The translations under genes were made by a program, and so were the position numbers. Below are positions 50,628-52,915 of a stretch of 64,000 nt of DNA, one piece after another. The first letter of the stretch is position 1. Each line of letters starts with the position of its first letter. Below the pieces are notes generated by a model that was given only the letters and a program-made list of their open reading frames with translations, had not been told where the DNA came from and did not search any database. The stretch lies in NCBI GenBank assembly GCA_049719805.1, contig JBNARF010000002.1, positions 15,805 to 79,804 on the forward strand, written 5' to 3'. Origin of the DNA: Candidatus Hydrothermia bacterium. Its GTDB lineage: Bacteria; Hydrothermota; Hydrothermia; UBA1063.

Positions 50628-51492
50628 TAGAATTCTGAAGGAAGTATATAAGGAGTATTTGTATTTTTTGAAAAATGGTGTACATTATCCCGCGCGGGCT
50701 GATAAATCAGCTCGCGCTGAAGTAAAAATCGGAGATTTAAGGCGAATCCTGGTGGATCCAACTATATACGTACTTATTGTAAAGAAGATTTCCCGCAAAC
50801 TTTTTGAAACCATTCCCTTTACCCCGTATGTGAAACTTGCGGCAGAGCCCTCCGTTCTTCTGTTCCTCAAAAAGTATATGAGATTTCTGGCACCTTTGCC
50901 TGCCAGGATATATATCCACGAAGATATCCTTTATTACCACAGCGTGCGGGAATCTGAGGTAGAACAATTTAATATAAAGAAGATTACGGATTTCCTGGAG
51001 AAAGTAAAATATCCTGATCACCCTGTAAAGGAGAAGTTTTTCAGGAAGGAAAACGAGAGGTACTCCGAATTTACCATGCAGAGCCTGGAGCTGGAAATGG
51101 AAGAGTATGAAGCTCTTCACGGTGAGCAGTTTGTTGAAGTTACAGTGCCTCAGGAAATTTACGAGAGGGTTTTTGGTGCATCTGAGAGTGAGGTTTCGAG
51201 GTTATATTATCTAATACCTGGAGAGCGAGCGTCCCGTAAAGAAAGGCCTCCAGCCTATCAAGCGATGACCAGGGAGCAAGTATTTCGTGTAAAAGATTTC
51301 CTTGTTTATCTGGAGGGTCAGGAGTCTTTCGTCTATTTGCCCGAGTTTTACTTAAATAAGGAGATTGAGCTTTCTATTAAAGATTTTACCCTCTTTCGTG
51401 GTACAATGGATAAAATCGGGTTTAAGCTGAAGTTTCCATCGGCTCCACCTGTTGAGTTGCTAAAGGAGTATTTATATGTTCAGGTTTATTGA
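50575..51492 (+). CDS. hypothetical protein
   Basis: 305 aa (likely start M at 50611). Overlaps both neighbours. No recognisable domain. Confidence 0.45.
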   Translation: MGVIYIKGRDLKMKEESDRILKEVYKEYLYFLKNGVHYPARADKSARAEVKIGDLRRILVDPTIYVLIVKKISRKLFETIPFTPYVKLAAEPSVLLFLKKYMRFLAPLPARIYIHEDILYYHSVRESEVEQFNIKKITDFLEKVKYPDHPVKEKFFRKENERYSEFTMQSLELEMEEYEALHGEQFVEVTVPQEIYERVFGASESEVSRLYYLIPGERASRKERPPAYQAMTREQVFRVKDFLVYLEGQESFVYLPEFYLNKEIELSIKDFTLFRGTMDKIGFKLKFPSAPPVELLKEYLYVQVY

Positions 51493-52915
51493 TTTTAAAC
51501 CAGAGCATCTTACAGCGTTTATAAGGAACGGAGTTTTGGATACGCTTTTCGATGAACTTCTCTCCGGATTCTGGAATTTCTATCCCGATGTTCAGTTTGA
51601 AATTGTTAAAAGATTTGAGAATTTTAGTAAAAAGGACGACCTGGCTTTACTTCTTGTTAAGCACTTTGAGATTCCCTTTGAGGACGCCCGAAAACTAATT
51701 AACGGCCCGCGGTTTTATTTTAAAATACCAGCGTTTTTCGATGATATTCTGCAATTTGTAGATATTATTTTGATACCTGAAACCTCAAGAATTATGACCA
51801 ATTTCCTGGAGATAACAGACTATTTAGAGATCATCGGGAAATGCTGTGGGAAAAAGTTTTTTATATTTTTTGATAAATTCTTTGACGACGAGAGTTTTAT
51901 GCTGCAGGTAGCCACAGTATTGAGGCTAGGTAATGTACCTGACCGCTACTGGTTTTTGGGTGCGATTGATGGTAAGTGCAATATTTTGCCCATTAAGAAC
52001 CTTGACTTGAAATTGCCTCTGATGGAAATTCAGGGTAAGAGAGGGATTTCTTACCCTCTGGCAAAGAATGTGAGGGACATTGAAAGATGGTTAAAAATTG
52101 AGACACACCACATACCGATTTTGATTATTGAAACTAATAATGGAGATGCAGGCGATCTTTTTGCGAATTTTCTGGGTATTTTAGGTCCTGAGGCGGAAGC
52201 CTCCTTAGGTGCTTTAAAAGCACTCTTCGGAATAGACGAAGATAATCTAATATTTGTTTTCCCGGGATTTGATGGAAGAGAAGAATGGTGGGAAAAATTT
52301 TCTGGTTTTTGTGCTTTTCTCAGGAAGGTGGAGGGCATCACCAGGGGAAGAATGCATTTTCACTTCGGGATTAAGAGCTCTCCCGGACTGGCTATGGCTT
52401 TAGGTATTTTATTTGGCAGCATGATACCCTTCTCGATTTATGATTTGGAAAAGCTTAAATTGTGTAGTGTGGTGAGCAATGTGCGGGAGTTAAAGACCCG
52501 GGTTCCTGACTATAAAATTAGGCATAAATTCGAATTGAAAAATCAAAGTGATGCTATTGTATATTTTAGACACAGGGAAGCTTCGGATTTACCCATAAAG
52601 AAGATTCAAGAAAGGCTGGATCTTATGGATGCGTCTATTGTTTCCATATACTTGAGGGGCAAATTATCACAGTGTAGGGTTAAGTATGTGGAGGTGGTAA
52701 AAGGTGTAACGTCTTTTATTCAGGACCTGCGCAAAGTTCATCCCTTTGGGAGATTCCACTTTTTCCCCAATATTCCCGCAACTTTATCATTTCTTCTGGG
52801 TGTATCTCTGGGGCACTACATGGAAGGAGTTATTTACAATTTTAACAGGTTCACGGACTCCTGGGGAAGGGTGTTGACCTTTTCAGATCTCAAGAGGTTG
52901 AGGGAAAGGTCTTAA
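51476..52915 (+). CDS. hypothetical protein, paralog of 57633-59093; triplicated Rossmann-like beta/Gly-loop/helix motif (candidate CARF/SAVED/SLOG-like sensor fusion)
   Basis: 479 aa. Shares EDARK, SFML..., ERWL...H.P... motifs with the 57633 protein. Also shares MHFHFGIKSSPGLAMALGILFGSMIPFSIY (cf. YFHLAIKGPIPLGFALGIIFGSMLPFTIY) and FHFFPNIPATLSFLLGVSLGHY (cf. FHFFFSSPVSLAFLLGVVFGHY). Confidence 0.6.
   Translation: MFRFIDFKPEHLTAFIRNGVLDTLFDELLSGFWNFYPDVQFEIVKRFENFSKKDDLALLLVKHFEIPFEDARKLINGPRFYFKIPAFFDDILQFVDIILIPETSRIMTNFLEITDYLEIIGKCCGKKFFIFFDKFFDDESFMLQVATVLRLGNVPDRYWFLGAIDGKCNILPIKNLDLKLPLMEIQGKRGISYPLAKNVRDIERWLKIETHHIPILIIETNNGDAGDLFANFLGILGPEAEASLGALKALFGIDEDNLIFVFPGFDGREEWWEKFSGFCAFLRKVEGITRGRMHFHFGIKSSPGLAMALGILFGSMIPFSIYDLEKLKLCSVVSNVRELKTRVPDYKIRHKFELKNQSDAIVYFRHREASDLPIKKIQERLDLMDASIVSIYLRGKLSQCRVKYVEVVKGVTSFIQDLRKVHPFGRFHFFPNIPATLSFLLGVSLGHYMEGVIYNFNRFTDSWGRVLTFSDLKRLRERS

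Follow-up and report, generated by a model that had tools for sequence, protein, structure and literature searches.

Two probable CalpL-family Lon-SAVED proteases in a degraded CRISPR locus of type III-A from a Candidatus Hydrothermia bacterium

CalpL, a type III CRISPR protease that joins a Lon domain to a SAVED sensor domain, belongs to a family that has already been characterized biochemically and structurally (PMC11417357; 10.1101/2024.05.08.593097). Two orthologues have been studied: SsCalpL from Sulfurihydrogenibium sp. YO3AOP1 (7QDA, 8B0R, 8B0U) and CCaCalpL from Candidatus Cloacimonas acidaminovorans (9EYI, 9EYJ, 9EYK), a filament-forming ring nuclease. The Ser-Lys dyad of the protease is S152/K193 in SsCalpL and the N-terminal helical domain (residues ~1-78) holds the substrate CalpT in the published structures (10.1101/2024.05.08.593097). 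The SAVED domain is also a ring nuclease, with H392 and R361/K364/K366 tested in SsCalpL (PMC11417357) and H396 tested in CCaCalpL (10.1101/2024.05.08.593097). A viral SAVED-only protein, AcrIII-2 of the Thermocrinis Great Boiling Spring virus (9R8S), has had residues R96, K99, H128, Q178 and S194 tested (10.1101/2025.07.01.662501). Here we describe two proteins, P1 (gene calpL1) and P2 (calpL2), encoded in a 64,000-nucleotide (nt) stretch of a Candidatus Hydrothermia bacterium (contig JBNARF010000002.1), which we refer to as the window. We consider it very probable that both are members of the CalpL family and share its general mechanism; the specifics that we propose for each protein are less certain.

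Both open reading frames (ORFs) were confirmed on the forward strand, with calpL1 at 51476-52915 encoding 479 amino acids (aa) and calpL2 at 57633-59093 encoding 486 aa. The two proteins align end to end by BLASTP with 29% identity and 47% positives (E=8e-57), in agreement with the full-length homology reported in an initial annotation made from the sequence alone. The CRISPR-Lon / SAVED4--SAVED_LON models of PADLOC match both proteins over their full length, at 3e-61 to 2e-67 for P1 and 2e-113 to 4e-119 for P2. The C-terminal 200 residues match Pfam SAVED (PF18145) at 4.2e-10 in P1 and 1e-28 in P2, both above the 26.2-bit cut-off, and the NCBIfam SAVED model is above its curated cut-off for both proteins as well. 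Among PDB sequences, the Sulfurihydrogenibium CalpL entries 7QDA/8B0U/8B0R are matched at 4.5e-30 by P2 and 1e-14 by P1, and the Cloacimonas CalpL filament 9EYI is also matched. The strongest PDB match is AcrIII-2 (9R8S; 3e-39 for P2 and 2e-22 for P1), to which, among solved sequences, the SAVED domains of P1 and P2 are nearest.

The fold of P1 points to the same family. We built an AlphaFold2 model of P1 on eight homologues (predicted local distance difference test score 87, predicted template modelling score 0.81) and compared it with the PDB by Foldseek. The top match was 7QDA (E=2.1e-27, template modelling score (TM) 0.69), followed by 9EYI, which gave the best TM (0.75), and the alignments to both structures span ~495 columns. 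SsCalpL has the same three domains, the Ser-Lys dyad and the SAVED sensor, and it shares calpT and calpS neighbours with P1, although identity in the structural alignment is ~18% and P2 lacks the partner genes.

SAVED domains also occur in effectors of cyclic-oligonucleotide-based antiphage signalling systems (CBASS), such as Cap4, Cap5, TIR-SAVED and SAVED-CHAT, which have the same fold with two CARF-like halves and are activated by oligomerization. P1 and P2 could on that ground be CBASS-type effectors, whose SAVED domain senses the product of a CD-NTase and not that of Cas10. Cap4 and Cap5 do appear among the Foldseek matches of P1, but more weakly (E ~1e-8 to 1e-7, TM 0.34-0.40 versus 0.69-0.75 for CalpL), and the CBASS proteins differ in their effector domains (nucleases, TIR, CHAT) and in their ligands. 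The models that match best are the CRISPR-specific Lon-SAVED models, every related locus contains cas or csm genes, and no CD-NTase was found among the genes examined. The closest solved SAVED domains, those of CalpL and AcrIII-2, are specific for cyclic tetra-adenylate (cA4) (10.1101/2025.07.01.662501). We regard a CBASS-type role as highly improbable.

P1 and P2 have the three-domain architecture of CalpL, an N-terminal helical domain (~51476-51709 in calpL1), a Lon-type protease domain without an AAA+ module (~51710-52261) and, at the C terminus, the domain SAVED (~52262-52912). Neither protein has a Pfam match to an AAA+ module or to Lon_C at E<=1, and the fusion of AAA+ to protease that defines canonical LonA and LonB is absent, with a trace match to LonB in residues 129-192 of P2 (E=0.097). 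They also differ from AcrIII-2, a stand-alone SAVED domain of 230 aa with H128 and S194 that has no Lon or N-terminal domain and acts as an anti-CRISPR rather than a host effector: both window proteins carry these two additional domains, and P1 is without the His and the Ser.

To size the family we required an exhaustive profile search over 1.84 billion representative proteins, since word-indexed homologue searches returned 1 to 6 matches per query. At E<=1e-3 the exhaustive search gave 345 clusters, and 103 clusters passed E<=1e-30, the best-scoring matches being mostly 460-530 residues long and covering nearly the whole profile. Exact-sequence look-ups for P1 and P2 returned zero records. 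Together with this search, the matches by hidden Markov model (HMM), PDB sequence and fold identify P1 and P2 as CalpL, whose family is small though well described. The proteins had been described as unplaceable and as candidates for an undescribed class, a description that PADLOC, the PDB sequences and the fold all contradict. A confident HMM or structural match to an unrelated housekeeping family had been named as the outcome that would speak against that proposal; confident matches of both kinds were obtained, and the family they lead to is CRISPR-associated and not a housekeeping one.

A neighbour-joining tree built from 85 family members places P1 on a long branch, as sister of a 17-member clade that includes P2. 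P2 is nearer to the CalpL proteins of WOR-3 and Aquificales metagenome-assembled genomes (MAGs), with ~40% identity, than it is to P1, and the two window proteins, although homologous throughout, are therefore not recent duplicates of each other.

The catalytic dyad of the Lon domain is kept in both proteins. An HMMER alignment to 7QDA places S141 of P2 (58053-58055) on SsCalpL S152 and K180 (58170-58172) on K193, and the equivalents of the CCaCalpL dyad, S154/K195, are likewise present in P2. The alignment columns of the 85 full-length family members identify S140 (51893-51895) and K179 (52010-52012) as the dyad of P1, and these columns hold Ser in 84/85 and Lys in 85/85 members. The effector part had been placed in the N-terminal ~120 aa; it is instead the Lon domain (residues ~79-262), with the dyad at residues 140 and 179.

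The dyad position also bears on the proposal that P1 and P2 form a novel effector class, built from three tandem Rossmann-like ligand-binding modules behind an N-terminal effector of ~120 aa. P1 does contain three strand/loop/helix units whose residue patterns are alike (residues 126-152, 293-316 and 426-446), two strands follow each copy in the model, and the NCBI annotation of both proteins stops at 'SAVED domain-containing protein'. We compared these regions by profile-profile hhalign, using sub-profiles taken from the 85-member alignment. P1 residues 266-341 and 400-477 align to each other over 74 columns with a probability of 99.3% (E=1.8e-20), each being one of the two CARF-like halves of SAVED. 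In each half, the motif (293-316 or 426-446) is made up of the first strand and the first helix, modelled as strands 293-300 and 426-432 and helices 303-313 and 435-445. The Lon core (P1 105-200), however, matches either half with a probability of just 1-2.4% (E=0.02-0.05), and the unit at 126-152 is the strand/loop/helix that bears the catalytic Ser140, in a region that the model shows as helix, strand, helix, strand, strand. We rejected 126-152 as a third repeat on this profile similarity and consider it a look-alike in secondary structure; because the SAVED halves align and the Ser140 motif does not, P1 has two true repeats and one look-alike. The thrice-repeated motif of the initial annotation thus holds for its second and third copies and fails for the first, and its reading of the C-terminal part as a duplicated CARF-like nucleotide sensor was correct, the sensor being SAVED (PF18145). 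With full-length CalpL matches by HMM, PDB sequence and fold, a first element that is the Lon catalytic Ser motif and dyad residues that lie beyond the N-terminal 120 aa, we give the novel-class proposal almost no credence.

P1 and P2 differ in the ring-nuclease site of the SAVED domain. P2 is a canonical CalpL with the full residue set, R339, K342, H374 (58752-58754), Q422 and S438, so that the tested R96, K99, H128, Q178 and S194 of AcrIII-2 are all conserved, as are H392 of SsCalpL and the ring-nuclease H396 of CCaCalpL. P1 retains R337, K340 and Q416 of this face, but it has no equivalent of SsCalpL H392: where the family reads 'ASHNPI', P1 reads 'ASDLPI', with Asp371 (52586-52588) in the His column, which is the H396 position of CCaCalpL, and Asn432 (52769-52771) stands in the column of the 'FxSxP' Ser. 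His is found in 75/85 and Ser in 72/85 family members at these columns. An alignment of 8 sequences had suggested H366 of P1 as the ring-nuclease His, a candidate that we rejected because D371 takes that place in the family HMM and in the 85-sequence alignment, and also by the model, where the helix that follows starts at residue 372. With both His and Ser replaced, P1 is probably unable to degrade cA4 and so to terminate its own signal.

The loss seen in P1 is not unique. His is absent from 10/85 family members, and therefore the ring-nuclease His is not strictly defining for CalpL; six of these ten, P1 included, also lack the Ser. Both residues are missing in ~7% of full-length CalpL relatives (P0049, P0070, P0113, P0118, P0147 and P0001), and the sequences that lack His and Ser are also the most divergent at other conserved columns. 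The residue pattern suggests a recurrent CalpL subtype without a ring nuclease.

P1 is encoded at the end of a tight operon of four overlapping genes on the forward strand, in the order X-calpS-calpT-calpL1. The third gene, calpT (50575-51492, with a likely ATG start at 50611), encodes the anti-sigma factor that is the target of CalpL and overlaps both calpS and calpL1, the latter by 17 nt. It matches PADLOC Unk_02 (1.3e-17) and CRISPR-T (6.4e-11), it is similar by tblastn to the calpT genes of the related loci L001, L003 and L004, and a profile of the window protein and three orthologues matches the C-terminal domain of CalpT10 in 8B0U at E=1e-4. The second gene (49857-50627; NCBI start at 49866, 253 aa) is a calpS candidate, a divergent sigma factor resembling the extracytoplasmic function (ECF) group. 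It matches PADLOC PDLC01153 'HTH' at 2.7e-9 and the NCBIfam sigma70-ECF model at 0.0035, under the curated cut-off, and the proteins at the calpS position in L001, L002 and L004 have similarly weak ECF/SigZ matches (3.6e-5 to 4.6e-3).

The first gene of the operon, gene X (49493-49864), encodes 123 aa with four invariant Cys residues (CX4C ... CX2C) and is conserved upstream of calpS. We observed it directly upstream of calpS in the window and in L001/L006/L007, L002, L004, L008-L010 and L012, that is, in WOR-3, Aquifex, Aquificales and three metagenome lineages, and the order X-S-T-L recurs in every related locus for which upstream sequence is available. The homologues are 123-143 aa long (for example L001:8119-8523, L002:8185-8613, L004:776-1207, L006:8121-8522, L008:2303-2641 and L012:8170-8580). 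Gene X has no match in Pfam, NCBIfam, PADLOC or the PDB, the last including a profile search. This extra conserved gene sets the clade of the window apart from SsCalpL and, as far as we have seen, is not mentioned in the cited CalpL papers; it may be an overlooked fourth component of the Calp module. Adjacent calpT and calpS genes are present for P1 only: P2 has no calpT, calpS or X neighbour, and nothing recognizable was found in the 330 nt upstream and downstream of it.

The operon lies in a degraded type III-A CRISPR locus. A remnant of the array (49059-49158, forward strand) consists of the repeat GTTCAGAGCCTACCTGTAAGGAATTGAAAC at 49059-49088, a 44-nt spacer (49089-49132) and a second copy at 49133-49158 with a 4-nt deletion. 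Both copies end in ATTGAAAC and the remnant is ~330 nt upstream of gene X; no further copies of the repeat were found in the window or in the related loci that were fetched, and the sole spacer has no exact 30-nt match in the viral contigs of IMG/VR. Downstream of calpL1 follows a 1.9-kb gap (52916-54809) with no ORF of >72 aa by ORF scan, in which six-frame Pfam, Rfam and tblastn searches with all ORFs of the related loci found nothing. The forward-strand cas6 (54810-55562) has 250 codons in a single, unshifted frame that is interrupted by an in-frame TGA (55041-55043) and TAA (55311-55313). Of cas10 (csm1), an 81-aa stub with the HD domain is left (55620-55865, forward strand; PADLOC Cas10 7e-11 over profile positions 1-53 of 577, Pfam HD 2e-5), and the remainder of cas10 and csm2-5 are missing from the locus. 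About 70 nt after this stub begins an apparently intact csx1 (55937-57301, forward strand; TTG start at 55901 in the ORF list), a CARF-HEPN ribonuclease (Pfam Csx1_CARF 1.5e-22 and Csx1_HEPN 1.1e-5, NCBIfam TIGR01897 1e-41 and above cut-off, PADLOC Csx1 1e-52) that is apparently a cA4-type effector. P2 begins after a 330-nt gap past csx1. The elements of this context that had been noted before, namely the CRISPR remnant, cas6, the cas10 fragment and a CARF-HEPN gene directly 5' of P2, were all found, and the assignment of P1 and P2 as ancillary effectors of type III CRISPR was likewise borne out. A scan for promoters and terminators gave nothing above shuffled background.

Related loci indicate what may have been lost. 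The WOR-3 locus L001 has the order csm2-csm3-csm4-csm5-csx1 ... cas1-X-calpS-calpT-calpL, and in the Aquificales loci L003 and L004 a cas6 and a large gene directly follow calpL; cas6 and csm-like genes stand beside calpL in L003, L004 and L012. Given these gene orders, the window has the appearance of a locus of this kind that suffered two deletions, the first taking most of cas10 and csm2-5 and the second the content between csx1 and calpL2.

A decayed neighbourhood raises the alternative that one or both calpL genes, calpL1 especially, are non-functional relics that have not yet been disrupted. Besides the 81-aa cas10, the missing csm2-5, the two in-frame stops of cas6 and the array of two repeats, P1 has a long branch and no longer carries 6 of the 20 residues that are most conserved, the ring-nuclease His among them, and P2 has no partner genes. 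However, the ORFs of P1 and P2 are full length without stops or frameshifts, neither protein has lost its Lon dyad, its SAVED glycines or its R/K face, and the X-S-T-L1 operon with its overlapping genes is intact, as is csx1. The existence of other CalpL proteins that lack the His, and in part the Ser, suggests a recurrent variant over random decay. Furthermore, a stop also interrupts the reverse gyrase gene of the window, so that such stops are not specific to CRISPR genes and might be artefacts of consensus or sequencing. We consider decay to a relic unlikely, but it is the alternative to which we give some weight.

The assignment of P1 and P2 as working members of the CalpL family has several points against it. 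Only one of the 85 members is more divergent than P1, which keeps 14 of the 20 most conserved columns where the median is 19, a pattern that may reflect relaxed selection. The candidate calpS is assigned from sub-threshold matches and synteny; its single-sequence AlphaFold2 model is poor (score 59 by the local measure used for P1), the Foldseek matches of that model are noise, and its profile matched nothing in the PDB. The window CalpT carries an insertion of 19 aa and lacks a clear cut site of the 'LAA' type: CCaCalpT is cut in 'LAAA', whereas the window protein reads 'PPAYQAM' at the aligned place. The presumed ligand, cA4, is that of the studied orthologues. Finally, no cyclase-competent cas10 was found in the locus or among the large ORFs scanned in the 64-kb window, so that activation in this cell is uncertain.

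The large ORFs of the window encode reverse gyrase, urocanase, glycosyltransferases and surface proteins, all of them housekeeping functions. The reverse gyrase gene (25007-28507, forward strand) is split by an in-frame TAG at 27302-27304 ('DLVKA*ILRRISDRWVGF'), and its two ORFs share one frame, with 25007-27304 holding the zinc finger, helicase and Toprim domains and 27332-28507 holding Topoisom_bac. The TAG stands where a conserved Gln would be expected from topoisomerase IA sequences. All three in-frame stops, the one in reverse gyrase and the two in cas6, interrupt genes that are otherwise intact and are compatible with C-to-T changes in CAG, CGA or CAA; given the reverse gyrase stop, some of the single in-frame stops of this MAG may be something other than true fixed mutations. 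On the reverse strand, 59533-60450 encodes HPPK (folK; Pfam 7e-41) fused to the ribonuclease-like and DNA-binding domains of Ogt/MGMT (1.7e-28), a fusion that we take to be unusual. Also on the reverse strand, 29269-43467 holds three ORFs of 1421, 2359 and 942 aa in one frame with single TAA stops between them. Two of these three were scanned and contain SdrD_B, CarboxypepD_reg or NEW3-like repeat domains, and the region holds either three surface-protein genes side by side or a single giant gene interrupted by stops.

By analogy with the two studied orthologues (PMC11417357; 10.1101/2024.05.08.593097), cA4 made by Cas10 would bind the C-terminal SAVED domain through its two fused CARF-like halves, and ligand-bound CalpL would form filaments by head-to-tail stacking. 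The CalpT bound to the N-terminal domain of one subunit would then be cut by the Lon dyad of the adjacent subunit, and this cut would expose a degron in CalpT, leading to its degradation and to the release of CalpS to RNA polymerase. P1 would be the protease for the CalpT of its own operon, being equipped for the protease step and having the substrate genes beside it. P2, with all its Lon and ring-nuclease residues in place and no partner genes, may cleave the CalpT of the calpL1 operon in trans, may break down cA4, or may do both. As the local type III-A interference module is broken, either a cyclase encoded elsewhere in the genome would have to supply the cA4 or the receivers would be idle.

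These features could be accommodated if the two proteins divided the labour. P1, having an intact protease but a dead ring nuclease, would be a long-lived relay wired to gene X, CalpS and CalpT, and P2 would be a cA4-degrading timer, perhaps assembling together with P1. Such co-assembly is possible because stacked subunits jointly form the ring-nuclease site and the R/K/Q face is retained in P1. With the local type III system deleted, a distant one would supply the receivers with cA4, and gene X would be the fourth component of the module. We offer this arrangement as speculation and hold it, taken as a whole, to be doubtful.

The main value of this analysis is corrective: what appeared from sequence alone to be a new class of effector is CalpL, a family whose structures have been solved and whose mechanism is worked out. 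The new features within this known family are modest: one CalpL has its ring-nuclease site replaced, the second copy is an orphan, the locus around them has decayed, and a conserved gene upstream is unannotated. Ring-nuclease variants of the P1 type could reveal how signalling proteases that cannot degrade their own activator are shut off. The presence of three cA4-type receivers (Csx1, P1 and P2) without a local cyclase bears on whether ancillary effectors outlive the CRISPR module that they serve, and the conserved four-Cys gene before calpS is a possible overlooked part of the Calp module in this clade of thermophiles.

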